Positions 16,801 through 52,200 of a DNA stretch of 64,000 bases are shown here, piece after piece; the stretch's first letter is position 1, and the number at the start of each line of letters is the position of its first letter. The stretch is from contig CBDUPA010000019.1 of the NCBI GenBank assembly GCA_965368975.1, forward strand, positions 32,001-96,000, in the 5' to 3' direction. The notes below the pieces were generated by a model. It saw only the letters and a list, made by a program, of their open reading frames with translations. It was not told where the DNA came from and searched no databases. This DNA is from an uncultured bacterium (GTDB lineage: Bacteria > Acidobacteriota > Thermoanaerobaculia > Multivoradales > JAHZIX01). Position numbers and translations under genes: made by a program.

Positions 16801-19800
16801 TAGCCGACCGCTCCAACCAGCTCAGCGCCCCCAGACGCAGAATCGGCAGCGTCGCCGCCCGCTCGCCCAAAGCCTCCAGCACACCCGCGTCCAGGTCCGC
16901 TTCGGTGATCAGCGCGTCCAGGCCGGCATCCCGGGCGACGTACGCCAGGCGCTCGGCCGGATGGCTCGGGTCCAGCGGTACGTAGGCCGCGCCCGCCAGG
17001 TGCACGGCGAGCAACACCGCTGGCAGGTCGGCGCGGCGGCGCAGCAAGACGCCGCACAGGGCCTCGCCCTGGCGCGCTGGGCCGAGCGTTTCCCGCAGCT
17101 GCTGCTGCAACTCGAGTGTCCGCTGCCAGAGCCAGGCGTAGCTCAGGTGGATCGAACCGCTGCTGACAGCGATGGCCTGCGGTCGCGCCTGCACCTGGGC
17201 CGCCACCTGCAGCACCAAGGGAAGCTCGCCAGGGACCCGGGTCGCGAGCAGCGTGGGAGCCGGGCCTTGCTGCTCGTGGAGCAGCGCGTGCCGTTCGGCC
17301 GAGGACAGCAGGTCGAGCGAGCCGACGACCCGCTCACCGATCGACCGCTCCCCGGCCTCCCTGTCGCCCTCCTCGTGCACCGGCGCGACCATCGAGGTCA
17401 GAAGCTGCCCCAGGTGACCGAGCATGCGCTGCACGGAACTACCGTCGAAGCGACCGCGCTGGAAGGCCAGCTTCAGGTGCAGGCGAACACCGGGCGTCGC
17501 CACGACGGTCAAGGGATAGTTGGTCTGTTCCTGGAACTCCATGCCCGCGACGCCGAGGCGGGTGCCGGTTTGCCGTTGCAGCGTCTCGCGCACCGGGTAG
17601 TTCTCGAACGCCATGATGCTCTCGAACAGCTGCGCGCGCGGCGGCAGGTCGCTCCATCCCTGGACCTGCGCCAGTGGACTGTGCTCGTACTGGCGGGCTT
17701 CCGCCTGCCCCTCCTGCAGCTGGCGCAACCAGGGCACCAAGGAACGCTCGGGCGAGGCATCGACGCGCGCCGGCAGCGTGTTGAGAAACAGCCCCAGCAT
17801 GCCGTCGATGCCCTGCAGCGGGGCGGCACGGCCGGAGGTGACGGCACCGAAGACGACGTCCGGCTCGCCGCTGTAGCGCGCCAGCAGCAGGCCCCAGGCC
17901 GCCTGCACCAGGGTGTTGAGCGTGACGCCAGCCTGCCGTGCCAGCTGCTGCAGCTCACCGCTGACCGCCTCCGGCAGCAGCAGCTCGCGCGCGCCGGGAC
18001 CGACGTGCTCGCGATCCGCCGGGGCCTCGGAGGTGATCGCGCGGTCGACCACCAGCGGCGTCGGCGCCCGGAAACCCGCGAGGTAGCGACGCCAGAAGGC
18101 CTCCGCCTCGGCCAGGTCTTGCCCCTGCAACCAGCGGATGTAGTCGCCATAGGGCCGTACCGGTGGCAGCGGCGCCTCGTCGCCCCGCTGCAAGCCGCCG
18201 CCGCGGTAGGCATCGTAGCTTTCCAGCAGCTCCCCCAGCAGCAACGGCAGCGACCAGCCGTCGATCAGCACATGGTGGAAGCTCCAGACAAAGTGGTGCA
18301 GATCCGGGGCGAAGCGCACCAAGGTCAGGCGCAGCGGCGGCGCGGCGGCAACGTCGAAGCCGTACCGGCGGTCGGCATCCAACAAGGCACGCAGGCGCGC
18401 TTGCCGCTCCTCTGGCCGCACCCGCTGCCAGTCGAGCAGGCGCCAGGGGCTCGGAGGATGCTGCCACACGCGTTGCAGCGGTGGCTCGTGCTCGAACAGG
18501 AAGGACGTCCGGAGCACTGAGTGGCGGCGCAGCATGCGCTTCCAGGCGGCCAGGAAGGCCGGCATGTCGAGGGCATCGTCCAGGTGCAGCCCCAACTGCT
18601 CGACGTAGACGCCCGAGTGCGGCTGGTGCAGCGTGTGGAAGAGCATGCCCTGCTGCGCCGGCGCCAGCGGATACAGGTCGACCGGCGGCTCAGCCCCACC
18701 GGGCCGCTGGACGGTGAGCGCGTCGAGGGTCTCCTGGTCGACCTCGGCGAGCGGGAAATCGGACGGCGTCCGGCCGGCGATCCCGGGCGTCGCACAGTGC
18801 TCGATCAGCGCGTCGAGCCGAGCCTCGAAGCTCTCCGCCAGCGCCTCGATGGTCGCCGGGCGATGGCGCCGCTCGCTGTACGTGAAGCGCACGTGCAATC
18901 TCTCGCCGGCCACCTGCGCCGACACTTCGAGCAGGTAGAGCCGCTGCTGGCGCGCATCGCGCATGGGTCCAGACGACTCGGGAGCACCGCGCCAGGGACT
19001 ATCGGCAGCGACCGCGCGGTCGAGCTGACCGAGGTAGTTGAAGACGACCGACGGCCGGGGTAGATCGCGCAGTCCGAGATCGTCGCGCTCGGCGTAGCGC
19101 AAAGCGCCGAAGGCCGCACCGCCGCCCAGGCCTCCGGCCAGCTGTGGTGACGCCGCGGCGCGCACCTGCTCCTTGACGCGCTTGAGCACGCTGCCGAGAT
19201 CCTCCTCGCCGCCTTCCCCAGTCTGCGCAGCCTCCCGTTCTGGCAGCTCCAGCGCTACCGGGTACAGCGCCGTGAACCAGCCGGCGGTACGGCTGGGATC
19301 GAGTTCGTCGGCGACCTCTCCACCGACACTCAAGGCGTCGCGGCCGTGGCCCTCCATCTCGACCAGCAGGCGCGGCCGGCCGGTCCAGGCGCCGACCGCT
19401 TGCAGCAGCGCCGCCAGCAGGACCTCGGGCACGCCAGTGCGGTAGGCCCGCGGCACCTGCTGCAGCAGTGTGCGGGTGCGCTCCGGCGTCAGCGAGATCT
19501 CGACGTCGCGGGCGGCACTCAACAGATCCTTGCCAGCCTTGAAGTCGACCGGAAGCAGGCTCGATGCCGAAGCCAGGCGACGGCGCCAGGCTTCGGCCAG
19601 CTGCACCGCCCGCGGCGCCTGAGCAAAGGTGTCGAGCGCCTCGCCCCAGGCCTGCAGCGTCACCGGCGACGCCATCGGCCGTGGTGATTGGCCGCTCGTC
19701 AGCTGTTCCAGCACGACGGTCAAGTCGTCGAGCAGCACGCGCCAGGTGACGCCGTCGACCACCAGGTGGTGCAAGATCAACAACACGCGGTCGACCTCCG

Positions 19801-22800
19801 GCGAGCCTCCGGGCGGCGTGCTTTCCAAGACGAAGAACAACGCGCGCAGCACGCGGGCCTGCGTCGGATCGAGACTCGCCTGGGCCGCGGCGGCCAAGCG
19901 CTCGTGCTCGGGCTGGCGTGCCCCCTCGATCAGCCGCGACAGGTCGAGCACGGCACCAGCCGGACCGGCCAGGCGTCGTGCCTCGGCCGCGCTCAGGATC
20001 TCCTGCGTCGACTTGGCCGGTGCTTCCAGGTCGACCGAGAAGCGGCTACGCAGCGCGCCATGGTGTCGACGTAGCGTTTCGACCGCGCGGTCGAGCAGCA
20101 CGACCGGCGGCCGCGTGTCGCCGGCTGGACGTAATTGCACCGCCTGGTTGAAGTGCCACCAGCCTTCCAGCCGCTGCTCGAAGAACCAGCGCTGCGCCGG
20201 AGTCAGGGCGGCCGGCCCCTGGTCGGACTGCGCACTTCCGGCTCCGTCGGCGACGCCCGCGACCGCCGCCAGGCCGGCCACCGTCGGCGCCTCGAACAGC
20301 TGTCGTGGCGACAGCGTGATGCCATCGCGGCCGGCGCGCGAGATCACCTGGATGCTCAGGATCGAGTCGCCGCCGAGCTCGAAAAAGTTGTCGTCGACCG
20401 CCACGTCGGAAACGCCGAGCACCTCCTCGAACACCGCCACCAACTTCCGTTCGAGCGGCGTGCCGGGAGCGCGTCGCTCCTGGCTCACGTGGCGCCAGCG
20501 CGGCGCCGGCAGGGCACCGCGGTCGACCTTGCCGTTGGAGCTCAGCGGGAAGCTCTGCAAGTAAACGAAGTGGCTGGGCACCATGTAGCCCGGCAAGTGT
20601 TCGAGCAGCTGGGCGGTCAACTGGGCACTGATCGCGTCCTGCAACTCCTCCGAGTCCCAGCGCACCGTGCTCGACGGCAGCACGTAGCCGACCAGGGTGC
20701 GCGAGCCGGTGTTGTCCTCGCGCACCACGCACACGGCTTCCTCGACCTGCGGATAGCCGAAGAGCACGGCCTCGATCTCGCCCAGTTCGATGCGGAAACC
20801 CCGCACCTTGACCTGGTGGTCGGCACGACCGAGGAACTCGATCAGGCCGTCGTCGCGGAAGCGCCCCAGGTCGCCCGTGCGGTAGAGGCGTTCGCCAGTC
20901 TGGGCATCGTGGCGGAAGGCCGCGCGCGTCTTCTCGTCGTCGGCCCAATAGCCGAGGGCGACGCCGATGCCGCCGATGAACAACAAGCCGGGCAGACCGA
21001 ACGGCCGCGGCTCCAGGTTCTCTTCCAGGATGTGGAAGCTCTGGTTGCGCATCGGCCGGCCATAGGGGATCGACGTCCAGTCCGCCTTGACCTCGCCGAT
21101 CGGATAGCAGATCGACCAGATCGACGCCTCCGTGGCACCCCCACCGCTGTACACCGTACATGCCGGCCACAGCCGGCGGATGCGATCGGGCAGCGACACC
21201 GGCAGCCAGTCACCGCTCATCAGCACACCGCGCAGGTCCGGCGGCGGCGCCACGTCGTGCAGTTCGAGCTGCCCCTCCAGGTACTCGACGTACATCTCCA
21301 TCAGCGCCGGCACCGAGTCCCAGAAGGTGACCCGGTGCTGACGGCACAAGCGCTCCCAGGTCGCCGGATCGCGGCGCGCGGCGATCGGCAGATTGACCAC
21401 CGCGCCGCCGGTCATCAGCAAGCCGAAGATGTCGTAGACGCTCAGATCGAAGGCCAGCGACGAGATGGCCAGCACGCGGGAGTCGGCGTCGATATCGAAG
21501 CGGTCGTTGACGTCGAGCAGCGTGTTGACGGCGCCGCGATGGTCGATCACCACGCCCTTGGGGCGGCCGGTCGAGCCGGAAGTGAAGATGATGTAGGCGA
21601 CGTGGTCCGGCTGGCTCAGCGACGGCAGCGCGGTCGTCTCCTCCTGCCACCAAGCGGGCTCCTCGCCATCGGCGGAGCGATCCAACCACAGTACCGGCGG
21701 GCACGACTCGGGCAGATTGTCGACCAGGGCATGCTGCGCCAGCACGAAGCGCGCATCCTCGACCATGAAGCCCAGGCGCTCGCGCGGATAGGTCGGGTCC
21801 ATCGGGATATAGGCACCCCCAGCCTTGAGGATGCCGTACAGCCCGGTGACGGTGTCAAACGACGGCTCGGTACACAGACCGACCAGCACGCCCGGCCCAA
21901 CGCCCTGCGCGCGCAGCGTGTGCGCCAGCTGGTTGGAGCGTGCGTCGAGTTCACCGTAGGTCCACTCGCGGGCCGCGTCGCCCTCGCCGTCGATCACCGC
22001 CACGCGCTGCGGCGCGGCCGCCGCCTGCGCTTCGAACAGCGCTTGCAGTGACGGCACCTTGGGTGTCTCCCAGGCGGTGTCGTTCCACTCGCGCAACTGG
22101 TGCCGCTCGGCACGGGTGAGCAGCGGCAGGCGCGACAGGGCCGTCCCCGGCGTCTGCACACCGCCCCCGAGCAGCACCTCGAAGTGGCGCAGCAGACGCT
22201 CGGCGGTGGTGGCGTCGAAGATGTCGGAGGCGAACTCCAGGCTGCCGAAGAAACCATCGGCGTCTTCGAGCAGGATCAGGCTGAAGTCGAACTTGGCGGT
22301 GCCATCGGCCAGACCCATGCCGGCGGCGGCCAGGCCACCGGCGGGCGCGCCGTCCTCGATCCCCGCGGTACCCGAGGCCGCCTCGATGCCTTCCTGCATC
22401 TCCAGCGCCAGTTCCTGCGGGATGTTCTGCAACGCCAACAGCGCCTGGAACAGCGGCGAATGGCTGAGACTGCGCTGCGGCGACAGCTCGGCGACCAGCT
22501 TCTCGAACGGCACATCCTGGTACGCGTGCGCATCGAGACTGATCTCGCGCACGCGGCGCACCACCTCGGCGAAGTCCGGGTCGCCGGTCAGCGGCGTGCG
22601 CAACACCAGGGTGTTGATGAAGAAACCGATCAGCGGCTCGATCTCGATACGGTTGCGTCCCGCCACCGGCGTGCCGACGCTGACGTCGGGCTGGCCGGTG
22701 TAGCGACCGAGCAAGGCCTGGAAGGCGGCCATCAGCACCATGAACGGCGTCGCGCCGGAACCGCGTGCCAGCCGGTGCACGCCCTGCGACACCGCCTGCG

Positions 22801-25800
22801 ACATGCGCAGGCTGCGATAGGCCCCCTGGAAGCTCTGCACCGGTGGCCGTGGACGGTCGGTCGGGAACTCGAGCAGCGGCGGTGCGCCCTCCAGATGCTG
22901 GCGCCACCAGCTGAGCTGCGCCTCGAGCAGGTCTCCGGTCAACCAGCGGCGTTGCCAGGCGGCAAAGTCGGCATACTGCACACGCAGAGGCGCCAGGGGC
23001 GAGCGGCGGCCCTGGCGGAAGGCATCGTAGAGCACCCGCACCTCGCGCCGCAGAACCGCCGACGACCAGCCATCGCTGGCGATATGGTGCATGGTCGACA
23101 GGGCAATGTGGCGCCCCTCTGTCTGGCGTAACAAGAGCGCGCGTAGCAGCGGATCACGGCCGAGCACGAAGACGCGCATGCCTTCGCGTCCTGCCAGCCG
23201 CCGTCCCTCGAGATCGCCAGCGGCGGTACCCAGGCCGGCGAGGTCGATCACAGGCATTCGGTAGCGGCGGGGTGGCGGCGCCACGCGCTGCATCGGCTTG
23301 CCGTCGACCTCCGGGTACGTGGTGCGCAGGACCTCGTGGCGGCGGATGATCTCCCCGACCGCGCGCTCCAGCGCCGCCACGTCGAGTTCCTCACCGTCGC
23401 CACCGAGCACGAAGGCATTGCCGATGTTGTACGCGGCGTTGTCGGGCACCAGGTGATCGAGGAACCACAAGCGTTCCTGCGAGAACGACAGCGGCGGTGG
23501 CTCGACCGGCACGCCGTGCTGGCGCGGCAGCGGCTCGATGTCCGGGATCTCGGGCTGGTGACCACCTCGGTGCAACTGCTCGATCAGCCGTCCGAGCGCC
23601 GCCGGGTGCGGCGCCTCGAAGACCCCGCGCACCGGCACCTCGACACCGAAGCTGGCGCGCACGCGCGACACCAGCTGCACCGCCAGCAAGGAGTGGCCGC
23701 CGAGGTCGAAGAAGCTGTCACCGCGACCGGCCTCGGGTACTTGCAGCAGATCCGTGTAGATCTCGATCAGGAGTTCTTCCGTCGCCGTGCGCGCCGGCTC
23801 GGCCCCCGGACGGTGCTCCCAGGCCGGCGCCGGCAAGGCCTTACGGTCGAGCTTGCCGTGCGCCGTACGGGGTAGCACGTCGAGATAGACGAGGGCCGAG
23901 GGCACCATGTAGTCGGGCACGGCCGCTTGCAGGTGGGCGCGCAACTCGGCTTCGCGCGGCGCGGCTTCCGACGCCAACGCCAGGACGTAGGCCACCAAGC
24001 GGGTGACGCCGGTGGGATCTTCGAGCGCCAGCACCACCGCCTGGCGCACCCGTGGATGCGCCGCCAGCGCCGCTTCGATCTCGCCCAGCTCGATGCGCAG
24101 GCCGCGGATCTTGACCTGGTGGTCGCGGCGAGAGAGAAACTCGACCTGCCCGTCCTGGAGGTGGCGCACCAGGTCACCGGTGGCGTAGAGCCGGTCGCCC
24201 GCCGAGGCTGACGACGGATCGGAAAGAACAGAGTCCGGCGGAAACGAATCCGCAGAATACGGATCCGGAAGATACGCCGCCGCCGTCTGGGCCGGACGTC
24301 CCAGGTAGCCACGGGTAACGAAGCTGCCCCCCAGGAACAGCTCGCTGGTGACCCCGGACGGGGCCGGCTGCAACTCGGCATCGAGCACGTAGGCGCGCGC
24401 CCCCACAAGGGGTCGCCCAAGCGACGAGGTGCGCGACGGACCGCTGCCGAGACCTTCATCGACCCGCCGTGCCAGCGCACCGACCGTCGCCTCGGTCGGA
24501 CCGTAGTGGCTGAAGGCCTTGCCTGGGGCCATCCATGCGGCCTGGCGCAAGGCCCAGGCGCGGGTGCTGGCCTCGCCGCCGAAAACGAGCCAAGTGGCCG
24601 GCAGCACGGCGCGCGGGTCAGCACTGCCCTGCAAAGCGGTCAAGTGCGAGGGCGCGATCTTGAGGCCGTCGACCCGGAAGCGCTGCAAGTAGTCCGCGAT
24701 GCCGGCGGCGTCGAGGGCCCGGTCCTCCGACATCGGATGCAGGGTACTGCCCCCCAGCAGGGGCGGATAGAGCGCCGTCTTGCAGGCGTCGACGGTCAGC
24801 GGCTGCACCATCAGCGCGCTACCGCCGGCTGCCGGGCCGAGCAGGCGGAAGATCGCGTCCAGGTACGCGAGGATCTGGCGATGCTCGACGATCACGCCCT
24901 TGGGCACGCCCGTGGAGCCCGAGGTGTAGAGCACGTAGGCGGCAGCCGCGGGGGACGCCGACAGCGTCAGGGGACCGGTCGCGGCCTGGCGCCACGGCCG
25001 TTGCCGCCAGGGCACCGTGGTGTCAACCACGTGGCCCTGGAAGGCCAGCAGCTTCGGTGTCTTGGCGCCGGCCAGCAAGACGCTCGCACCCGCGTCTTCG
25101 AGTACCGCCAGCAGGCGGGCCGGCGGCTGGGTCGGATCGAGCGGCAGGTAGGCGGCACCGGCTTTGAGGGTGGCGAGCACGCCGAGCACCTGCGCGATGC
25201 CGCGGCGCAGCGCCACCGCGACGCGCGGCTCCTCGACGCTGCCGAAGTGGCAGCGCAGGTGGCGCGCCAGACGCTCAGCCTCGGCGTGCAGATAGCCGTA
25301 GCTGAGGAAGTGGCCGACATACCCTCCACCCTGCGGCTCATCCTGCAACACTTCCTCCACAGCCGCGATCGCGTCCGGCGACTCCGCGGCCGTTGCTTCC
25401 AGTCGACCGTGCAGGAAGGCGTCGCGTGCGGCCTCGATACGCCGCGTCGACGCCTGCGCACAACCGCTCCACTCCCACAGCAGCTGGTGCCGTTCGGCGC
25501 TGCTGAGCAGGGGCAAACGCGTCCACGGCAGCGCCGGCGTCGCGGCGGCAGCTTCGAGCAGGCGCCCGTAGGCACCGAGCATGCGGCGGACGGTGGCCCG
25601 ATCGAAGAGGTCGCGATGGAATTCGAAGCTGGCGAACCAGCCTTCGGGGCTGGCGATGAGCGTGACCGTCAGATCGAATTTGGGCACCGGCGGCGGCAGC
25701 TCCATCGGCTCGACCTGCAAGCCCTCGCCTGCTTTCGAACCGGCCGTTCTCGAACCCGCATTCGCACCTTGACCGCCACGGCTCCCAGCCTGACCGCTGC

Positions 25801-27090
25801 TCTCCGCCTGCTGCAGCACGAACAACACCTGGAACAAGGGCGATTGGTCCAGGCGGCGCTCGGGGCGCAGTTCCTCGACCAGCTTCTCAAACGGCAAGTC
25901 GCCGTGTGCCTGGGCATCGACCATCGCCTGGCGCGTACGCGCCAGCAGCGTCCCGAAGCCGGGCTGGGCCGCGGCACTGTCTTCACCGGCACCGTCTTCA
26001 CCGGCACCGTCTTCATTGGCACCGTCTTCATTGGCACCCAGATCGAGGCGCAGTACCAGGGTGTTGACGAAACAGCCGATCAGATTCTCGATCTCTTCGC
26101 GGCTGCGTCCGGCCACGGGTGTACCGATGGCGACGTCACGACTGCCGCACAGCCGGCCGAGCAGCACCAGGACGGCACCGGCGAAGGTCATGAAGTCGGT
26201 CGCCCCGCTCGCCTTGCCGAAGGCCAGAAGCGGGCCGGTGACCGTCGCCGGCAACAATCTCTCGACGCGACCGCCAGCGTCACCGCGACGAGCGCTGCCC
26301 TCGCGTGGATGGTCGACCGGCAGCGCCAGGGGTTCCAGGCCGTCGAGGCGCTGGCGCCAGTAGTCCAGCTGCGCGGCCAGGCGCTCGCCACTCAACCAGC
26401 GACGCTGCCACACCGCATAGTCAGCGTACTGCACCCCCAGCTTGGGCAGCACCTGGCGCGCCTGCTGGCGGTCGGCATAGAAAGCGACCAGCTCACGCAC
26501 CAGCAACTCCATCGACCAGCCATCGCTGACGATGTGATGCTGGGTCAGAAAGAGCGCCGTGCGTGTCCTCTCGGTGGTGTGCTCAGCTGGCGGCAAGCGC
26601 ACCAGGGCGGCGCGTAGAAGGGGGCCTGTCTCGAGATCAAAAGGGCGCAGCGCCTCGCGTGCCGCCAACTCGCGCGCGCAGTGCTGGGCCCGTGCCGCGG
26701 GCAAGTTGCGCAGGTCGACCACCGGCAGCGACCAGCGCGGCGGTGCCTCGCCGACACGCTGGCGTGGCTCGCCCGCCACCTCCACGAAGGTCGTGCGCAG
26801 CGCCTCGTGACGGCGCACCACGGCGAGGAACGCCGCCGCCAGGCGAGCGCTGTCGAGCTGGCCGTCGAGAATCACCGCGGTCGCGACGTTGTAGAGCGGA
26901 TTGCCCGGTAGCAGGCGATCCAGGAACCACAAACGCTGCTGAGCGAACGCCAGGGGCTCTCCCTGCGGATCCGGCTCCCGCGGCAACACGACGTTCTGCT
27001 CGAGGTCCACCCCCTGCCGTCGCAACATCCCCTCGAGCAGGCGCCGCCGCTCCGGCGACAGGCCCGCGATCGTCTTGGCCAGATCGGTCA

Positions 27091-27091: not shown

Positions 27092-34131
<7,040 letters not shown>

Positions 34132-34196
34132 CTCTCAGCGCCTCGTCCTAGGAAATTCATCGAAACGGTCCACTCCTCACAACGCCGTGGACACGA

Positions 34197-34242
34197 GATC
34201 ATTCCGTCACTTCACTCTTGATCATTCCGTCTCTTCGCTCTT
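34197..34242. repeat. 23-bp tandem duplication spanning the stop codon of gene A
   Basis: gatcattccgtcacttcactctt / gatcattccgtctcttcgctctt (2 mismatches). Confidence 0.9.
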
Positions 34243-40200: not shown

Positions 40201-43200
40201 CACGGCCGCCTCGGTCGGTCCATACAGGTTGTACAGCCCCGCGCCAGGTCGGCGCTCGAGCAGGCGCCGCGCGAGCGCCGCCGGCAGCGCTTCACCACTG
40301 GCCACCACGCGGCGCAGGGAGGTGCACAGTTGCAGGCCGGGTTCTTCGACGAAGACCTGCAACATCGACGGCACGAAGTGCAGCGTGGTCACCGCCTGGC
40401 GCACGATCAAGCGAGCCAGGTAGCCGGGGTCCTTGTGACCCGCCGGCTTGGCCAGGACCAGTCGCACGCCTTCGAGCAGCGGCCAGAAGAACTCCCATAC
40501 CGAGACGTCGAAGCTGGCCGGCGTCTTCTGCAACACCACGTCACCTGCCGCCAGGCCGTACTGCTGCTGCATCCAGTGCAGGCGGTTGCAGATGGCACGA
40601 TGGCTGTTCATGGCGCCCTTGGGCTTGCCGGTCGAGCCGGAGGTGTAGATGACGTAGGCGAGATTCTCCGGGCGCCTATCGGCCAGGCTCGTCGAAGCGG
40701 TTTGGCTCGTCGAAGCAGTGGGTACATGCAGCGAGCCGTCGCCGTGTAACTCGACGATCACCCCTCCCGCCGTGACAGCAGCGGACTCGACCGCCGGTGC
40801 CAGCCCCGGTGCGGTCACCAATAGCCCTCTATCTTCGTTCGCAGCGGCGCTCCAGGCATCTCCGAGCATGAAGGTCAACCGTTCGCTTGGATAGTCGGGG
40901 TCCAGCGGCACGTAGGCCGCACCAGAACGGAGGATGCCGAGCAGCGCCACCACCAGTTCCAGCGAGCGCGGCATGCAGACGGCGATCACGGACTCAGGAC
41001 CGGCACCCTGCTCTCGCAGGCACTCTGCCAGCGTCTCGGCTCGGCTGAGCAATTCGTCGTAGCTCAACCAGTGCTGACCGCACTGGACCGCGATCGCTTG
41101 CGGCCACTGCCCAGCCCGGGCGCCAATGCGCGCATCCAGCACGGCCGGTTCGCTGACCGGCACTGGCGGATGGGCTGGCGGCAGTTCTGCCGGCAACAGT
41201 GCAGGTGTCTCGTTCCACTCGCGCAGCACCTGCTGTTCCTGCGCCACGGACAGCCAGGGCAAGTCCGCCAGCGGCACCTGCGGCTGCGCCACGCCGGCAG
41301 CCAGCAAACGTTGCCAGGCAGCCATCCAGCGACGCACGGTGGTGGCGTCGAAGAGTGCCAGGCTCCAATCGGCGATGGCTCGGTAGGTGCCTGCTCCGGC
41401 GGGCTCGACGGTCAGCGACAGGTCGAAGCGTGCCTGCGCGGTCTCGACCTCCAGCGGTCGCACCGCCAGCCCGGGCAAGCTCAGGTGCACCGGCGGCACG
41501 TTCTGCAACACGAAGAGCACCTGAAACAACGGTGTCCGGCTGCGATCACGACGCGGTTGCAGCGCCGCGACGAGCTGTTCGAAGGGCAGGTCTTGGCGCT
41601 CCTGCGCGGCTAGCGTCTCGTCGCGCACCCGCGTGACCAGTTGACCGAAACCGTCCGCGGCCGCCAGGTCGCTGCGCAGCACCAGCGTGTTGACAAAGCA
41701 GCCCTGGAGCGTCTCCAGTTCGGGCCGCGGACGACCAGCGACCGGCGTGCCCACCGCCACATCGGCGCGCGCGGCGAGGCGGCCGAGCAGGAGCTGGAAG
41801 CCGGCGAGCAGGGTCATGAACAGCGTGCTGCCACGGCTGCCGGCAAACGCCTCCAGACTTTGCGTCAGCGACGCCGGCAGCGGCAGGGCCAGGCGTCCAC
41901 CGGTGAAGCTCTGCTGCGCCGGCCGCGGTCGGTCGCTCGGCAGGTCCAGCGGTTCCAGGCCCCTCAGCTGCTGGCGCCACCAGTCGAGCTGCGCTGCCGC
42001 GCCGCCGGCGTCGAACCAGGCACGCTGCCACGCCGCATAATCGGCGTATTGCAGACTTTCCTCGGCAGGCGCCGAGGCAGCCGGCTGAGCAACCTGCCCA
42101 CCAAGCTGACGGCTGTGCTGCCGCTGGTATTCCTCCACCACCTCGCGCACCAGCAAGCCGACGGACCAGCCGTCGGTCACCGCGTGGTGCAGCACCAACA
42201 ACAAGGTGTGCGTTGCCGGCTCCTGGCGCACCAGCAACCAGCGGTGCAGCGGTGCGCGCCGCAAGTCGAAGGGTCGCGCGCCGGCCAGCTGTGCCAGGCG
42301 TCGTGCTTCAGCCGAGCGTCGCGACGGCGCCAGGTGGTGCAGGTCCAGGCACGGAACCGAAACGCCCGTGGCGGCCGGGGCGATGACCTGCCGCAGCCTT
42401 CCCTCCTCGTCGGCGTCGAGGTGGCTGTGCAACACTTCGTGCCGGGCCACCACCGCACGCACCGCCCGATTCAGGAGAGCGCCATGCAGAAGGGCACGAT
42501 TCAAGACGGCACCCTTCGAGCCCGCCTCGTCTTCCGACGTGGACTCCAACCTGCTGGCGAACACCACGTTGTAGGCGGCGCGCCCGTCCAGTGCCCCTTC
42601 AGGCTGGCCAGCTTGCACTTGCCGTGCCTCCAAGGGCCCGTCAGGCAGGGGAGCGAGCAAGCGATCGAGCACCCAGAAGCGCTGCTGCGCGAACGAGGCC
42701 GGCAGTACCTGGTCGCGGGAGATACGGCGTAGCGGCGGCCCCACCGAGGTGCGCCCCGAAGCCTCCTCTGAGACGGAACCCGCCTCGCGTAGACGCTGCG
42801 CCAGGGCCGCGACGGTGCCGGCCCGGAAGATGTCCCCCAAGCGCAGCGACACTTCGGCTCCGACCCCGGACTCCGACGCCATATCGCGACGCAGGCGGCC
42901 GAGCAGGCGCGTGGCGAGCAGGGAGTGGCCACCGAGGGCGAAGAAGTCGGCGTCACGGCCGCTCACCGGCACTTCGAGCAACTCGCTGAACAGCGCCGCC
43001 AAGCGCGTTTCCAGCTCGTCGCGCGGCGGCCCACCGGCGTCCGCACCGCCGGTGCCGGCGGCCAGCAGGTCGCTGTCCGGCGCGGGCAGCGCCTTGCGGT
43101 CGACCTTGCCGCTGGTGTTGAGCGGCAGGGCGTCGAGCTGCACGAAGGCGGCGGGGATCATGTAGTCGGGCAGGGTGTCCGCTAGCCGCTGGCGCAGGTC

Positions 43201-46200
43201 ACTGGGGTCCTGCGTCGAGGAGGCAGTCAGGTAGGCGATCAGGCGTGAATCGCCGCCCGCCGTGCGCTGGGCGACGACCACCGCGTCCGCGACTTCCGGC
43301 AGGCGTCGCAGCACGTCTTCGATCTCCCCCAACTCGATGCGCAGGCCCCGTACCTTGACCTGAAAATCGATGCGTCCCAGAAAGTCGATCGCACCGTCGC
43401 CGCGATGGCGAGCCAGGTCGCCCGTGGCGTAGGCACGGGCGCCGCCGGTACCGTCCTCCGGGAAGGGATCGGGACGGAACGCGGCGGCGGTCAGCGCCGG
43501 TCGACGCAGGTAGCCGCGCCCCACGTTGACGCCGGCGATCCACAGCTGCCCCGGCACCAGCGCCGCCACCGGTCGCAGGCTGGCGTCCAGGAGGTGGATA
43601 CGCGTGTTGGCGATCGGTCGACCGATGGGCAGCGTCGTGGCGCTCGGGCGGCAGGTCCAGCGCGTCACGTCGACCGCGGCCTCGGTCGGACCGTAGAGAT
43701 TCTCCAGCCGCGCGCCGCGACGGGGATCCAGCTGTGCCAGCGTGCGCTCGGCCAGGGACACGGGCAGCGCTTCTCCACTGGTCACCACCAGGCGCGGCCC
43801 CCAGGGTCGCTGGGTAGCCTCTTCCGGTGCCGCGTCCACGTAGAGCTGCAACATCGACGGCACGAAGTGCAGCACGCTGATGCCAGCGCGCCGGATCAGC
43901 GCTGCCAAGTACGCCGGATCGCGGTGGCCTCCGGGTCGCGCCAGTACCAGGCGTGCGCCTTCGAGCAGGGGCCAGAAGAGTTCCCACACGGAGACATCGA
44001 ACGTCACCGGCGTCTTCTGCAACACGACGTCGCCCGGGCCCAGCTCGTAGGCCGTTTGCATCCAGCGCAGGCGGTTGTCGATGCTGCGATGGCTGATCAT
44101 CGCCCCCTTCGGCTTGCCGGTCGAGCCGGAGGTGTAGATGACATAGGCGAGCTGGTCCGCCCCGGCATCCGCCGGCACGAGTTGGTCTGCCCCGGCATCC
44201 GCCGGCACGAGTTGGTCTGCCCCGGCATCCGCCGGGATCCGGGCCACCGCGTCCGGCGAGCGTGCACCCGCAGGGCTCGACACGTCCAGCTCCAGGCACG
44301 GCGGTGCCGGCTGCGGCAGCAATGGCCGTAGGGCATCGACCCGCGCGCGCAGCGCCGCGACGGTCACGATGGCGACGGGCTCCGCGTCGCCGACGATCTC
44401 GGCCAGGCGCGTCGGCGGATGCTCCGGGTCCAGTGGCAGATAGGCACTGCCGCTGAGCAGCGTGCCGAGCAGTGCGATTGACAGCTCCGCCGAACGCTCC
44501 AGGCACAGCGCCACGCGGCGGTCGGGACCGGCACCGAGGGCCTGCAGGCGCGCCGCCAGGTGGCAGGCTCGACGCCAGAGTTCGGCGTAACTCACATGCT
44601 GAAGACCGGCGACCAGGGCGACCACGTCCGGCAGGCGTTCGACCGTGGCGGCGACGCGCCGATGCAGGTAGCGGGATCCGTCGGCCGGCCACGTGACACG
44701 CGTGTCGTTCCAGGCGTAGCGCAGCTGGTGGTGCTCAGCGCGGCTGAGCAGCGACCGCGCATGGCGCGGCAGGTCGGGCTCTGCGGAAGCCGCCACCAGC
44801 GCCTCCAGCGTCCGCCGGTACCAACCCGCCCACTGGCGCACCTGGGCCGGGTGCAGGCGCTCACGCCGGTATTGCAGCTCCAGCGTCGGCCGGCCGTCGC
44901 CGGCATTGCGGCCGGTCTGCACCATGAGCGTGAAGTCGGTCTCGGCGAAGGTGTGGACCGCCAGCGTCTCGAGACGCTCGGCGAGGTTGTCGGCCGAGGC
45001 CAGAACGTGGAAGTGGATGTAGTTGAAGGCCACTTCGAACAAGGCACTGCCGTCCGCCAGCCGCCGTTGCAGCTCGGCCAAGGGCAGGCGGCGATACGGC
45101 AGCATGGCCACTTCGGCGTCGTAGACCGAGCGAATCAGCTGACGCCAGCTGCCCCCGTGCCGCGCCGACGGCAGGCGCAGGCGCAGCGGCAGGGTGTTGA
45201 GGAACAAGCCCATCGTGCGTTCGCTGTCGGCACCTTCCGGACGCCCGTTGCTGACCAGACCGGTCATCACGTCGCGGCTGCCGCTCAGCTGCTCCAGGAC
45301 GTGCAGGTGAACGGCCAGCAACACGGACTTGAGCGTCACGCCGATAGCGCGCGCCAGGGCCTCGAGCGCCGCCGTGTCCGGCATCGGTACCTCGATCACG
45401 TCGACGCCTGGCGGCTGGTCGGCCAAAGTCCCGGCACGAGGCAGGCGCAGCATCTCGGCCCCCGCCAGCTGGCGGCTCCAGAAATCCCAGGCCTCGCGAC
45501 TCGGCTCTCGATTGGCCAGCATCTGCCGCTCCAGCTGCACGAAGTGCCTGTACGGTGGTGCTGGCGGTGTTGCGTCCCGGGAGGCGGTACCAAGCAGCCG
45601 CTGGACCTCGGAGAAGACCTCGGTCAACCAGCTGGCGATGCTCCAGCCATCGATGATCGCGTGGTGCTCGCTCCAGCCGAAGACGAAGCTGCCGTCCCCG
45701 TAGGGCAACAGCCAGACCCGCAGCAGCGGTGGTCGACGGACGTCGAAACGCGCTCGCTGCTCGGCCTCGAAGCGCCGCGCCCGCTGGCGCTCGCGGTCCT
45801 CGGGTGCCAGCGCCGACAGGTCGCAGACGCTGAAGCGCACCGGTGCCCGTCGCGCCACGAGCTGCAGCGGCTCGTCGAACCTGTCGAGATCGAAGCTGGT
45901 GCGCAGCGCCGGATGCCGGTCGGTCACCGCTTCCAGCGCCCGTTGCAGGGTTCCGGGGTTCACGTCGCCGCGCAGGTGCAGGGCCGAGACGTTGTGGTAG
46001 ACCGCTCCCGGCTCGGCAGAAGGTTCGGCAGCTGTATCGGGGCTCGCGTGCTCGGTGAAGTAAAGCATGCCGAGCTGCAGCGCCGACACCGGATAGGCGT
46101 CCTCCAGCTCCGTTTCCCGGTCTTGCAACCGCTGCCGGTCGGCGTTCGTCAGCAACTCGAAGGGGCCGGCCCAAGCCTCCTGATCCGGCGCCGCGCCCTC

Positions 46201-49200
46201 TGCCTGTTCAGCGCCCATCACCCGTGAAACCGTCGCCAGCTGGGCCACCGTCGAGTGCGTGAAGAGGTCGCCGAAGCCGATCTCCAATCCTTGCTCGGCC
46301 GCCTGGGCCCCGACGCGCAAGCTGAGGATCGAATCGCCGCCGAGGCTGAAGAAGTTGTCGTGACGCCCGACCCGCTCCAGGCCCAGCACGCGGGCGAACA
46401 CCGCCGCCAGCCGGATCTCCGTCTCCTCCACCGGGGCCTCGTAGGCGATTTCGCGGCTCAGCCCACCGTCCGGCGCCGGCAGAGCGCGCCGATCGACTTT
46501 GCCGTTGGGCAACAAGGGCAAGGCGTCGAGACGCAGCCACAGCGCCGGCACCATGTAGTCCGGCAGGCGGCTGCGCAGGTGAGCTCGGAGGTCTTCCTGC
46601 CAGCTGTCTTCGCCGCGGGTGTCCGACGCGTCCAGGACCACGTAGGCCACCAGGCGCGCGCTGCCGGCAGAGCCCCCGGTGCGGTGCGCGACCACCACGG
46701 CGTCGCGCACCCGCGGGTGCTCGTCGAGCGCCGCTTCGATCTCGCCCAGCTCGATGCGCAACCCGCGGATCTTGACCTGGTGGTCGATACGCCCGAGGAA
46801 GTCGATCTCGCCATCCGGCTTGTAGCGGGCCAGGTCACCCGTCCGGTAGAGACGCGCGCCCCGGTCCAAGCTCTCCCCTTCTCCTCCCCGAGCTGGAACG
46901 AACACTTCCGCCGTCTTGGCAGGGCGTCGCCAGTAGCCGCGAGCCAGCTGGACGCCGCCGATGTGCAGCTCACCACCGACCCCGATCGGTACCGACTCAC
47001 CTTGACGGTCGAGCAGCAGAATTCGCGTGTTGGTCACCGGCCGGCCGATGGGCACACCGGCAGCGAGCTCGTCCGGCGTGCAGCAGTGGTAGGTGACGTC
47101 GACGGCGGCTTCGGTGGGACCGTAGAGATTGTGGAGACCGGCTCCCGGCAAGCCAGCATCGCTCAGGAGCGGCAAGGGCAAGCGCTGCAACAGGCGACGC
47201 GCCAGGGGACCCGAGAGCGCTTCACCGCTGGTCACGACGCGGCGCAGCGAACGGCACGCCGGCAGATCCGGCTGGTCGACGAAGACCTGCAGGAGCGACG
47301 GCACGAAGTGCAGCGTGGTGATCGCCTGGCGGCGGATCAGCCAGGTCAGGTAGGCCGGATCCTTGTGCCCGCCGGGCTTGGCCAGCACCAGGCGCACGCC
47401 TTCGAGCAGCGGCCAGAAGAACTCCCACACCGAGACGTCGAAGCTGGCTGGCGTCTTCTGCAACACCACGTCGCCCGCATCGCCACCTGTACCCGGAGTG
47501 CCGGCATTCAGCTGGTACTGCTGCTGCATCCAGGCCAGGCGGTTGCAGATCGCGCGGTGGCTGTTCATCGCGCCCTTGGGCTTGCCGGTCGAGCCGGAGG
47601 TGTAGATGACGTACGCGAGATGCTCCGGCTTCGACTCCGTCCACGGCTGCATCTCATCGGGGGCCGCGGCCAGGTCGGTGTGCGAGTCCGGCATCTCGAC
47701 GCCACCGTCCGGCGCCAAGCGCAGCACCGCGGCACCACGATCGACGGCCTGCTGTTGCAGCTGCGGCACGGCGTGGGGCTGCACGAGCAGAATGCCACCC
47801 TGGTCGCTACTCTGCTCGCTGCCCTGGTCGCTGGTGGGGTCGTCGTGGCCCAGTTGGTTGGCCCAGGCATCGTCGAGCATGAAGGCAAGGCGCTCGTGCG
47901 GATAGTCGGGATCGAGAGGGACATAGGCCGCTCCGGCGCGCAGCACGCCGAGCAGGGCGACCATCAACTCCGGCGAGCGCTGTAGACACACCGCCACTAC
48001 CTGGTCCGGGCCAGCCCCGACTCGACGCAGCCGCGCGGCCAGCGCCGTGGCACGGCGATCCAGCTCGCCAAAGCTGAGCCAACGCCGGCCGCAGACGACG
48101 GCGGTCCGCTCCGGCACTCGACGCGCGCGGGCGGCGATGCGTTCGTGCAGCACTGCGGGTTCCCGGCCGGGGTGCTCGGCAAGGTTGGGCGTCTCGTTCC
48201 ACTCGATGAGGAGCTGATGACTCTCGGACTTGCCGAGCAGCGACAGCGCCTCGATCGGCAAGTTCGCCCGTGAAGAGTCCTCCTCGCCGACCGACGCCAG
48301 ACCTTCGAGCAGACGGAGCAAGTGCCCGAGCAGTCGCAGCGCCTCGGTCGACACGAAACGCGAGCGCTGGGACAGCAGGCGCAGTTCCAGACGCTGGTCG
48401 CGCCCCGGCACCACCAGCAGGCTGAGCGGATAGTGCGGCTGTTCGCGTGCCGCCACCTCCTCGACCTGCAAGCTCGAAGGCTCGTTGGATGCGCTGTGAT
48501 CGGCTTCCAAGGGATAATTCTCGAACGCCAGCAAGGTCTCGAACAGCGACCGGCCGGCCGGCACCTGGCTCCAGGCCTGCAGCCGCGCCGGAGGCGTCGC
48601 CTCGTAGGCCCGCTGCTCGACCTGGGCCCGCTGCAACGCCTGCAGCCAGGGAACCAGCGGTCGACCGTCGAAGTGCACGCGCACCGGCAGCGTGTTGATG
48701 AACAGGCCAACCATCTCTTCGATACCCGGCAGCGGCGCCGAACGACCCGCGGTCACGGCACCAAAGACGACATCGGGAACACCTCCATCCGATGCCCCCT
48801 CCGTAACACCGGCATGCACCGCCAGCAAGCGGGCCCAGGCGCCCTGGAACAACGTGTTGAGGGTCAGACGGTGGCGGCGTGCGAAGGCTTCGAGTGCCTG
48901 TACCAGGTCGTGGGACAGCGGCTGTCGACGGTCGTCGAACGCATGGCCTTCGTCGGCTCTTCCATCACCAGAGGCCACAACAGCACCCGACGTCGGCCCT
49001 GACGCCGGCAGGGGCGTCGGCTCGTCGAAGCCGGCCAGGTAGGCGCGCCAGAAACGCTCCTCGGCCGTCGCGTCGCGACCTTCCAGGTACTCGGCGTAGC
49101 GCTGGAACGGTGGTGGTGGCGGCGCCAGTGCGGCGCCGGCATAGAGCGCCCGCACTTCGCCCAGCAAGCGCGGCAGCGACCAGCCGTCCATCAACGCGTG

Positions 49201-52200
49201 GTGATGACTCCACAGGAAGCGGTAGCGCGTCGCCCCCTCCGCCTGTGAAGACGTCAACGCTGCGAACTCACGCGCCAGCAGCAGCCGCATCAGCGGCGCG
49301 GCACCGGCGGCAAAACCCTGGCGACGGTCGGCGTCGGCGAGGCCCTGCCACTCTGCCACACGGACAGGTTCCGGCAAGCGGCTCAGGTCGACTACCTGCA
49401 GCGGCAGCGGGTGCAGCGCCAGCGGGGATCCGCCGTCCGCCAAAGAATCTGACCAGGAATCCGACCAGGACGGCCACGCCCGCACCGCCTGCAGCGGCGT
49501 CTCGGTGTCGAGCGCGAAGAAGCCGGTGCGCAGGACCGCGTGGCGCTCGAGTAGCTGGTGCCAGGCGCGGTGGAAGGCCTGCACATCGAGGCCCGGGGCC
49601 AGGCGCAGCGTCAGCTGCTGGACGTAGAGCCCCTGGCCCGGCGCGCGCAAGCTGTGGAATAGCATGCCCTGCTGCATCGGCGTCACGGGATAGATGGCTT
49701 CGGGACGCCGGCCGTCGAGCGTCATGCGGACTAGCAGGTCGCGTGCGGCTGCCGCCAGCTCTTCGAGTGCCGAGGTCAGGCCATCGAGCAGCAGCTCGAC
49801 GGTCGCCCGCTGATGCCGGCTCGGCGCATAGCGCAGCGTCATTTCCAGGCGACCTTCGCGCACCGCGGCTTGCAGCTCCAACGCCAGGGGCCGCGGCAGC
49901 TCGGGGTCGACCTGCGGGCCGATCCAGGCCGGCACGTCCAGCCTCGGCTCCCAGAGCTGCGAACCGCCGGCAGCGTCGAGACGTCCCAGGTAGTTGAAAC
50001 CCAGGGTCGGCCGCGCCTTGGGGATCGGCGTCGGGAGCCCCTGCAGCACGCCCCATTCCGCGCGGCCATCCAGGCCGGCCAAGGCCCCCATTTCTGAGGA
50101 ATGACCGTCTGAGGCATGACTATCCGTAGCGTCACCCGGCCCGGGAGCGACACCGCGACGCAGCTCGTCCTGCGCCGTCCGTACCTTTTGTAGCGCCTCT
50201 GCCGGCTTCGCCGTGCCAGCACTCGCAGGCTGCAGCACCAGCGGAGTCTGCACGGTGAACCAGCCCGCGGTTCGGCTGACGTCGAGGGCACCGTCCAGCA
50301 ACACGTCGCGACCGTGGCCTTCGAGCTCGACCAGCAGAACCGGATGCCGCCGGTGCTGGCCTTCTGCCGGGCCGTCTGCTGGCTTCTCGAGTGGCTCCGC
50401 CTGCAGGTGTCGCGGCCAGGCGCGCAGCAGGGCGCTGAGCACGGCGTCGGCCAGGCTGCCGCCGTAGACACTCAGCGCATCCGTCAGCAGCGTTCCGGTG
50501 AGGTCGGTACTGAGGCGCCGCTCGACGCTCGCCTGCCGACCGAAGGTGTCAACTTCGGGCGAAGCAGTTTCGCGAGCAGCTCGGACATCTTCGGGCAGGT
50601 GCAGCACCGGCGCCGCCAGGTATGCCGCCCAGGCTGCCGCCCGTGCGGGAGCTTCCGGTGCCGCCGCGAGCTCGGCCAGGTGGCGACTCCAGGCGGTCCA
50701 GGGCGCCGTCTTGGGTGGTAGTCGACGCTCCAGGACGAGTGATTCCAGGTCGTCGAGCAGCAGGCGCCACGAGACCGCGTCGACCACCAGGTGGTGGCAC
50801 AGCCAGATCAGATACTCCTGAATGGGCGACTCCTCACGAGGAGATACACCCAGGACATGCAGCAGCCGCACCAGCGGTCCGCGTGCCGCGTCGAACGACG
50901 CCTGCGCTCGCGTCGCCAGGCGCTGCGCTTCGGCGGGCCGCCTCTCGGCGGGCAGGCCGCGCAGGTCGAGACAGGCGTACGGCGTTTCCGCGCGCGCCAG
51001 CGGCGGCAGGATCAGCGGCTCGCCAGCATTGTCCTCGGTTGCGGAGGCCCCTTCCGCCGGGACCCGCCAGACCAGGCGCAGCGCGTCGTGGTGACGCAGC
51101 AGACGGCCGAGCGCTCGATCGAGATGCCCCGGAGACACCTGGCGAGACGGCTGCAGCAACAAGGCTTGGTTGAAGTGAGCGGGCGCCCCGAGATTTCGCC
51201 ACCAGCGCTGGATCGGGGTCGGCGGTGTTGGGCCACTCACGGGACCCTGCTCCGCCTCGGGGCGAGCGCGCTCGGGCGACGCTTGCAGGTGCGCGGCCAG
51301 GCGGGCGACGCTCGGGTGTGCGAAGACGTCGCGCGCGTCCAGCTGCACTCCGGCTTGCTGCGCGCGGGCCACCAGCTGGATGGTCAGGATGGAGTCACCA
51401 CCCAGGGCGAAGAAATCGGCCTCGGCGTCGAAGGCTTCCAGATCCAGTTCCGCGCCTGCTGCCTGCAGGCCCAGCACTTGGATCCAGATCTCGGCCAGGC
51501 GACGCTCGAGGTCGCCCGCGGGTGGCCGGCCTACGGTACGGGTCGCACCCGCAGCACTCCCAACCCCGCCAAGCGCCGCCGAGCTGAGCTGCGGTGCCGG
51601 CAAGGCTTTCATGTCGAGCTTGCCACTGGCCAGCAAGGGCACGGTGTCCAGCACCACGAAGGCGGCCGGCACCGCGTAGTCCGGCAGGTGGGCCGCCGCC
51701 AGCTGGCGCAGGTCGTCGGCGGCCGGATCGGCGCTGCCCGCCGGCGTCACGTAGGCGGTCAGCAGGCGCTCGCCGGGGTGATCCTTGCGCAGCACCACCG
51801 CCGCCTCGCGCACCGCCGGGTGCTGGCGCAGCACGGCCTCGATCTCGGCCGGTTCCAGGCGGAAGCCGCGCAGCTTGATCTGGCGGTCGGCACGGCCCAG
51901 GAACTCCAGCTCGCCGCGAAAATCGCGCCGGGCCAGGTCTCCGGTGCGATAGAGCCGGCCACCTGCCACGCTGGCTTCGACGCCATCCGGAACGAACGCT
52001 TCGATGCCATCCGGAACAAACACCGTCGCCGTCTGCGCCGGACGGCCGAGATAGCCGCGTGCCACGCCGGGCCCACCGAGCACCAACTCGCCAGCGACGC
52101 CGCGCGGCACCGGTTGCTGGCCCAGTGCCTCCGCACCTGTCGCCAGCAGGTACAGGCGGACTCCGGCCAGGGGGTGTCCCAAGCGCAGGTTGCCCTGGCT

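Follow-up and report, generated by a model that had tools for sequence, protein, structure and literature searches.

We analyzed a 64,000-nucleotide stretch of DNA (hereafter the window; C19:32001-96000) from an uncultured bacterium of the class Thermoanaerobaculia (Acidobacteriota) and examined the giant nonribosomal peptide synthetase (NRPS) line that it carries, in particular a condensation domain predicted to install dehydroalanine (Dha) in the peptide product. C19 denotes contig CBDUPA010000019.1 (148153 bp), part of a 7.1-Mb assembly of 59 contigs (GCA_965368975.1). The G+C content is approximately 70% across the window, and its sensible long reading frames all lie on the minus strand and form three co-linear NRPS genes. 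The domain map was obtained by cutting the three frames into 70 tiles of 600 amino acids (aa) with a step of 300 aa and comparing these with Pfam, and the positions of core motifs were added. Coordinates without a contig prefix are window positions, and all features of the line are on the minus strand.

The first gene, gene A, occupies 34222..63999 of the window (open reading frame [ORF] list, Pfam tiles 1 to 33, and motifs); its 5' end lies beyond the window, and the full gene (C19:66222-105998) encodes 13258 aa. Its N terminus is composed of a fatty-acyl-AMP-ligase-like domain (FAAL), a carrier (T) domain, a starter-like condensation (C) domain, an adenylation (A) domain, T, C, and C, followed by the A-T pair that precedes KS. 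In the window, the order is an A-domain tail, T, the polyketide synthase (PKS) module KS-AT-ACP, and modules M1 to M6, of which M1 and M2 are C-A-T-E (E, epimerization), M3 and M4 are C-A-T, M5 is C-A-T-E, and M6 is C-A-T. Modules are numbered from the first one after KS-AT-ACP, with two NRPS modules and one PKS module upstream in gene A, and each domain takes the number of its module. Tandem C domains lie between T and A at the gene A N terminus (C19:96001-105998), the first of which clusters in the tree with the starter C domain, and the A domain preceding KS-AT-ACP reads DPRHLVLRAK; a similar domain, DPRHFVYRAK, occurs in the same-order genome G256, where the next ORF contains a heterocyclization (Cy) module farther along. 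Gene B (27091..34131; 2346 aa; ORF list and Pfam tiles 34 to 40) encodes M7 and M8, both C-A-T. Gene C covers 2..27091 of the window with M9 (C-A-T), M10 (C-A-T-E), M11 to M15 (C-A-T), and the first part of M16, and in full (C19:20260-59091; 12943 aa) it extends from M9 to M19. The whole line therefore comprises FAAL-T, 2 NRPS modules, 1 PKS module (KS-AT-ACP), and 19 NRPS modules in three genes, an orphan hybrid that should produce a peptide with an acylated N terminus and about 21 amino acids.

A sequence-only reading of the window had proposed that modules 3/4 install Dha and that this Michael acceptor may be captured by a Lys-like residue from M7 or a Cys-like residue from M10. The region it described, 18760-49700, begins with C3 and finishes with E10, which makes its module numbering the same as ours, and Pfam tiling and motifs place all of its modules there on the minus strand. 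Specificity codes were taken by hand from a MAFFT alignment and then automatically by hidden Markov model (HMM) columns, and both readings gave the identical Ser-type code DVWHVSLVDK for the A domains of M3 (46498..48132; Pfam AMP-binding, tiles 18 and 19), M4 (43105..44649), and M5; the close variant DVWHLSLVDK is given as the common Ser/Dha code in PMC12283262. The carrier T3 (46231..46413; PP-binding, tile 19, motif at aa 5886) has the "TE"-type motif LGGDSI, although the domain after it is not an E domain. Carriers with GGDSx (GGDSI as opposed to GGHSL) serve E, DCL, and dehydrating C domains (PMC10880069, section 3.3), and the module upstream of C4 thus combines the two features expected ahead of a dehydrating (CmodAA) domain, a Ser code in A3 and a GGDSI carrier in T3.

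The C4 domain itself (44710..46122) is of the CmodAA type. According to the corallorazine C-domain study (PMC11342130), CmodAA domains are marked by a [K/R]SVLLAAH helix that precedes motif C5 and by R(R) where motif C6 begins; C4 reads KSVLLAVH, with a single substitution, and YRRLPLAEL, while its HHAIIDG motif is intact. Its closest relative in the PDB is the McyA domain (8jbr; 2.1e-80, 274 bits, among 34 hits), followed by the AmbE CmodAA domain (7r9x; 1.2e-51, 179.5 bits) and PvdL (8.4e-42, 147 bits), so that McyA and AmbE lead all other solved C domains by >30 bits, and McyA does so by 127 bits. Neither of these two was found for the neighboring domains used as controls: the post-E domain C3 gave 10 PDB hits at E <= 1e-20, including McyB, PvdL, BacC, and TycB, and C5 gave 30 hits at the same threshold, which were LCL domains. 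In a FastTree phylogeny built on 47 domains of the C and E types, 36 of them on contig C19 and 11 CmodAA-like ones from a scan of the phylum, C4 falls in one clade with the 11 CmodAA-like domains, which is sister to 4 post-E C domains and separate from the E and LCL clades. Classification with home-made HMMs divided the C domains of the genome into 191 LCL, 14 DCL, 7 E, 4 modAA, and 2 Cy domains, and each of the four modAA domains sits behind an A domain coded for Ser or Thr, with GGDS[IL] in the carrier; the modAA model was built from those same four domains, so their membership is circular, while their context is not.

C4 might instead be a dual E/C domain or a plain DCL-like domain that does not dehydrate, in which case residue 3 would be D-Ser and the peptide would hold no Michael acceptor at this position. 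The D-clade in which C4 lies is also home to DCL and dual E/C domains (our tree; PMC10880069), the GGDSI motif of T3 is common to the partners of E and E/C domains, and PvdL-type domains come next in the PDB list. The order of the PDB matches, the CmodAA-specific KSVLLAVH and RR motifs, and the Ser/Thr context of all four such domains in the genome argue for the CmodAA assignment, and we give the nondehydrating alternative little probability. A nocardicin-type β-lactam-forming C domain was considered and rejected, as C4 reads EHHAIIDG and thus has no third His of an HHH motif. By homology, Dha at residue 3 is likely: C4 would dehydrate the peptidyl-Ser carried by T3 before joining the Dha-containing peptide to Ser4, in the order reported for dehydrating C domains, in which dehydration precedes condensation (PMC10880069).

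C4 resembles the second-module C domain of McyA (microcystin), the AmbE CmodAA domain, Crz1-C2 (corallorazine), and AlbB-C2 (albopeptide) in standing behind a Ser module with a GGDSx carrier. They also share membership of the D-clade, an intact HHxxxDG motif, a [K/R]SVLLAAH-like helix, and RR at motif C6, and similar chemistry would be expected of them, with a donor Ser converted to Dha before condensation. C4 differs in having approximately 40 to 45% identity to the nearest CmodAA-like domains found and in residing within a line of ~22 modules, which, unlike McyA, contains no N-methyltransferase. Three more CmodAA-type C domains were noted in this genome, one in a minus-strand 3108-aa ORF on contig C1 and the others at C1:153128-166990 and C7:70198-77634, each behind a module for Ser or Thr. 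The protein of 3108 aa is arranged as FAAL, A(Ser), T, CmodAA, A(Gly-like), an order similar to that given for corallorazine in PMC11342130.

The M4 Ser is a different case. C5 (~41200-42600) has Txo1/Txo2 as its best PDB matches (3.8e-76) and is LCL-like, so a single Dha is predicted rather than two, and the Dha of modules 3/4 is to be read as one residue, the M3 Ser acted on by C4. In M5, the Ser-coded A5, T5, and E5 (HHLVVDG) lie at 38047..41118; the tree places E5 among the E domains and C6 among the post-E domains, and D-Ser is predicted at residue 5. Two irregular domains were observed in this part of the line: E2 (49600-51399) reads HHLVVDA and is matched by Pfam over its first half only, in one tile, and the N-terminal C1 motif of C5 (41200-42600) is degenerate, reading LPDGPLEARQVQ. 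Both domains may be impaired or atypical.

As for the partners proposed for Dha, their spacing was correctly given as 4 (M7) and 7 (M10) residues. The A domain of M7 (30847..32532) has the code DIESMGTVVK, with Glu at code position 3, a residue that characterizes the "mode 1" pockets for diamino acids, which range from 2,3-diaminopropionate (Dap) to Lys (PMC12042044, section 14). Related codes are DGEDHGTVVK (Lys) and DVESIGGVTK (Arg or homoarginine) (PMC12283262, section 11). Residue 7 is likely diamino or basic (Lys, Orn, Arg, or shorter); the Lys-like label thus survives as a class, and the residue could also be Arg, a poor nucleophile.

With a probable Dha at residue 3 and a Glu-bearing pocket in M7, a lysinoalanine-type bridge could be drawn from the side-chain amine of residue 7 to Dha3, which would close a five-residue ring. 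Amines add to Dha much less easily than thiols do, and the cluster flanks contain no unassigned small ORF with a gene-like G+C pattern at third codon positions (GC3). Duramycin, the lysinoalanine case among peptides that are made by ribosomes and modified after translation (RiPPs), requires DurN, and many nonribosomal peptides (NRPs), such as syringomycins and microcystins, keep dehydrobutyrine or Dha beside 2,4-diaminobutyrate, Lys, or Arg. The Arg-type code DVESIGGVTK (PMC12283262) also indicates that M7 may load Arg. We consider this ring very improbable.

The second candidate, M10, is built as a noncyclizing module. C10 (22094..23494) is of the LCL type (HHIASDG), as found with Pfam, the tree, and the C-type HMM (LCL, 604.7 bits), and there is no heterocyclization domain. 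It is followed by the A domain (20477..22036), T10 (LGGDSI) with E10 (HHLVVDG) (18842..20446), and the post-E (DCL)-type C11 (17384-18676), so residue 10 is predicted to have the D configuration. The A domain belongs to the Cys clade. Among single-domain PDB matches, the Cys module of BmdB (7ly7) ranks first with 415 bits, its core region matches FmoA3 (9.7e-33), BmdB (4e-32), and PchE (9.8e-27) among solved domains, and its core motif A5 reads GGGATE (SGGGATE) where NxYGPTE is usual. It thus shares with the canonical Cys A domains of BmdB and PchE both the clade and GGATE in place of YGPTE; unlike the Cys A domains of Cy modules, it stands after an LCL domain and before an E domain.

The M10 code, DLYDLSGIWK, departs from the canonical Cys code DL[YFW]N[LM]S[LM]IWK by the changes N278D and L322G. 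It agrees with BmdB and PchE, which read DL[YF]NLSLIWK in the alignments, at 7 of the 9 variable positions, and it is unique among the 249 HMM hits in the genome, where canonical Cys codes occur as DLFNLSLIWK (contig C7) and DLYNLSMIWK (contig C14). A thiol at residue 10 is doubtful because of these two pocket changes and the canonical Cys codes kept elsewhere in the genome. The description of M10 as a Cys-clade module followed by an E domain is therefore borne out, but its thiol is not secured, and on its pocket we regard loading of Cys as possible though rather doubtful. Full-text literature searches with the six unusual codes of the line and six Asp278 variants found no characterized A domain with the M10 code, and the text of one supplement of PMC12283262 held no match to DLYD or SGIWK, although its table layout may hide codes.

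To place the Asp278 pocket, Cys-clade A domains, defined by GG[AP]TE at core motif A5, were extracted from a pool of 150 proteins from a representative search with the M10 A domain as the query and 120 proteins from a second search; the representative search ranked giant NRPSs by summed domain scores instead of nearness and served as an A-domain pool only. Extraction gave 203 domains, M10 included, of which 18 with another letter or a gap at position 278 were dropped. Asn occupies position 278 in 163 of the kept domains and Asp in 22 (M10 counted). The two types differ in the C domain upstream: among Asn278 domains it is Cy in 135, LCL in 10, DCL in 2, CmodAA-like in 0, and absent or too short in 16, whereas the corresponding numbers for Asp278 domains are 1, 5, 0, 5, and 11. 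Accordingly, 5/11 classified Asp278 domains but 0/147 Asn278 domains lie directly behind a CmodAA-like C domain. These five cases (P0075 twice, P0063, P0209, and P0194), whose C domains read QHAILDG and K-E-[LI]-C-L-[SA]-A-H, are not independent and represent only about 2 to 3 lineages. The Asp278 survey proteins also include P0210 and P0157, and the G256 locus lies at C132:48294-101404 of that genome.

Asp278 is not monophyletic in the tree and is distributed over a clade of 11, a clade of 4, and 7 singletons. M10 is one of the singletons; its sisters (support 0.99) are two Asn278 domains from proteins of Thermoanaerobaculia metagenome-assembled genomes (MAGs), which have canonical Cys codes in LCL-A-T-LCL modules, and its nearest relatives in general are in proteins named after Thermoanaerobaculia or Acidobacteriota MAGs. 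From this placement, M10 appears to descend from domains of the uncyclized-Cys type, its pocket having changed in a recurrent way that avoids Cy domains. The existence of Asp278 Cys-clade A domains that avoid heterocyclization domains and often follow dehydrating C domains is the most useful by-product of this analysis.

What M10 activates instead could be a small polar residue other than Cys (Dap held by Asp278, Ser, or an Ala-like residue), giving a D-amine or D-alcohol at position 10. Code position 4, where M10 has Asp, is one of the anionic anchor positions for side-chain amines in "mode 2" binding (PMC12042044, section 14); mode 2 needs acidic residues at positions 4 and 9, and M10 has Trp at position 9. 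The near absence of Cy domains upstream of the Asp278 type (1/11 classified, compared with 135/147 for Asn278) points toward a non-Cys substrate, and so does G256, in which a single 6338-aa protein contains both Cy-A(DLFNLSLIW) and LCL-A(DLYDFSLVW); because this protein uses both types, different substrates are suggested for them. Adjacent SbnA-SbnB pairs for 2,3-diaminopropionate synthesis, above the NCBIfam cut-offs, are encoded in both Asp278-bearing genomes (C3:389688-391687 here and C79:17441-19425 in G256) and in 0/14 control genomes, but the pair here is on contig C3, and the NRPS A domains found on that contig are all far away from it. The want of a characterized relative with this code and the scattered origin of Asp278, with M10 beside Asn278 domains, speak against such a substrate, and we hold a non-Cys residue 10 to be a serious candidate whose chance falls somewhat short of even.

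If M10 does load Cys, the thiol of the E10-epimerized Cys10 might add to Dha3, either spontaneously or through an unrecognized or unlinked enzyme, to form an eight-residue thioether macrocycle of the lanthionine type. Such a bridge is consistent with the likely Dha, with the Cys-clade position of M10 next to two canonical Cys domains of noncyclizing modules, with the Asp278 domains found behind CmodAA-like domains in the survey, and with an NRP precedent: in verrucosamide, of the thiocoraline family, a Cys sulfur is found on the β-carbon of a present or former N-methyl-Dha (PMC7694325). The 2/9 deviating code positions of M10 beside canonical codes elsewhere in the genome, and the suggested difference in substrate between the two types in the G256 protein, weaken the case; moreover, M10 is not itself behind a CmodAA domain, the five survey cases come from few lineages, and no LanC-like domain (PF05147) occurs on the contig. 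The precedent also differs in geometry, as the verrucosamide ring is a seven-membered 1,4-thiazepane between adjacent residues of a small symmetric depsipeptide and no i to i+7 macrocycle; its authors propose a disulfide precursor, and BE-22179, of the same family, retains Dha beside a disulfide (PMC7694325). A lanthionine-type bridge in the present peptide is unlikely.

Our preferred reading is that Dha survives, most likely, as a free Michael acceptor, by analogy with most CmodAA-made peptides. PF05147 has 9 matches in the genome (contigs C18, C1, C13, C22, C41, and C11) and 0 on the 148-kb contig C19, so the statement that no cyclase is visible in the window extends to the whole contig. The suggestion that the flanks might hold LanC-like or unfamiliar small proteins was not borne out by Pfam searches of all flank ORFs, which revealed none besides two racemase-family paralogues; the flank ORFs all belong to families unrelated to ring closure, and no search aimed at DurN was made. 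By itself, the pairing of a Michael acceptor with a basic or small polar residue is no more than chance would provide in ~21 residues of peptide.

The reactive pair of lanthipeptide, duramycin, and cinnamycin cross-linking (LanC, LanM, and DurN), Dha and a nearby thiol or amine, might in principle be present in this peptide as well. Those peptides are ribosomal: LanB- or LanM-type dehydratases form their Dha, and LanC-like domains or DurN close the rings. In the present line, Dha would come from an NRPS C domain on a contig with no PF05147 match. Other comparisons are the nocardicin NocB-M5 C domain and BlmVI of bleomycin, in which transient NRPS-bound Dha acts as the Michael acceptor for an amine (PMC10880069, sections 3.2 and 3.3). 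There, the attack comes from the incoming acceptor amino acid within one C active site and not from a distant side chain, and BlmVI-type domains lack the His pair (PMC11342130), whereas C4 keeps HHAIIDG. Section 3.2 of PMC10880069, a 2023 review of dehydroamino acids, lists NRPs in which such residues are transient (AMB, nocardicin, pyrrolizidines, bleomycin, cyclocarbamates, and salinazinone), and these involve reactions of neighboring residues only; a long-range lanthionine or lysinoalanine bridge is absent from that list.

We consider it probable overall that the line makes a lipopeptide of ~21 residues in which one Dha is kept free and no bridge is visibly encoded. A programmed bridge to residue 7 or 10, with all routes counted, has only a small chance, and a long-range bridge that forms without a cyclase (a D-Cys10 thioether, or one from the amine of residue 7 or D-Dap10) is likewise improbable. 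From the codes, residues 1 to 10 of the core would be D-Ala1, D-X2, Dha3, Ser4, D-Ser5, X6, diamino/basic7, Leu-like8, Asp9, and D-X10, and residues 11 to 19 would be Gly-like11, Asn12, Leu-like13, Glu14, aromatic15, Glu16, Ala17, Pro18, and X19.

Several points weigh against this account. Most residue names, beyond Ser, the diamino class, and the Cys clade, follow specificity codes that we presume to hold here, and the GrsA-numbered pocket positions are those we take to be correct, compared only with the BmdB, PchE, and FmoA3 alignments. The dehydration is predicted by homology, and CmodAA relatives also perform other chemistry; in the bleomycin, zeamine, and fabclavine lines, for example, they conjugate side chains (PMC11342130). 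If M10 loads Cys, as the canonical codes of its sister domains would allow, the thiol could add to Dha without an enzyme, and Dha would then not be free; verrucosamide, with its Cys-S-CH2 link to a Dha-derived residue, shows such a link in an NRP (PMC7694325). Finally, the last domain of gene C is a carrier, and neither a thioesterase nor a reductase nor a terminal C domain follows it, so part of the pathway is missing or located elsewhere, and a tailoring enzyme could likewise be encoded elsewhere.

As it stands, the locus is a further case of an orphan lipopeptide synthetase of giant size that contains a dehydrating C domain, which is useful for genome mining in the Acidobacteriota. Should a distant side chain truly capture Dha, an NRP would contain a macrocycle of the lanthionine or lysinoalanine type, a RiPP hallmark, and the Asp278 subtype would mark a wider, undescribed "Dha plus partner" logic in NRPSs. 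A search with C4 retrieved 8 of 401 sampled genomes of the phylum, this one included, at E <= 1e-60, with a best identity of 44% outside this genome, and a search with the M10 A domain retrieved 5/401 at E <= 1e-110 among the best 3 candidates scored per genome; within these limits, no orthologous assembly line was found in the 401 genomes.

Downstream of gene C, at a distance of 76 bp, two tandem paralogues of 250 and 242 aa (C19:18699-20183) belong to the Asp/Glu/hydantoin-racemase superfamily, as judged from NF005679 (2.1e-51 and 4.4e-40, both under the cut-off), a weak PF01177 match, and Atlas clusters. A PDB sequence search with the racemase-like protein returned only a hydantoin racemase (E 0.04), and a single-sequence structure prediction was unusable (pLDDT 33). 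The paralogues might supply a D-amino acid, yet LCL-type C domains follow both the Asp and the Glu modules. Further downstream, C19:15157-18610 encodes an 811-aa AAA_21 ATPase with an HNH-like N terminus and a 335-aa PtuB-like HNH protein (NF041761; 2.6e-18, under the cut-off), a PtuA/PtuB-like pair of Septu/retron-type defense that marks the downstream edge of the cluster.

Directly upstream of gene A, C19:106044-110395 encodes, in this order, a transketolase C-subunit, a transketolase N-subunit, a DegT-type aminotransferase, and a second transketolase C-subunit, an operon that might make an unusual starter or building block. A 445-aa plus-strand ORF at C19:109430-110767 was dismissed as an antisense artifact by its GC3 pattern; the real gene beneath it is that of the second transketolase C-subunit (109349-110395, minus strand). 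Beyond this operon, a divergent FGE-sulfatase-family gene is followed by another NRPS line composed of U1 and U2. U2 (C19:111581-136615) ends in T-TE, and U1 (C19:136612-148152) starts inside an A domain and shares the repeated code family DAWYIGHVTK with a 6595-aa NRPS ORF at C29:1-19786, which has a carrier domain first and is broken at the A3 motif at the contig edge. Contigs C29 and C19 probably join, and the neighboring thioesterase-ending line would then be separate, with a start of its own. Near the opposite end of contig C19, at C19:222-4890, two tandem 768-aa Ser/Thr kinase-TPR genes with identical first ~300 residues represent a recent duplication.

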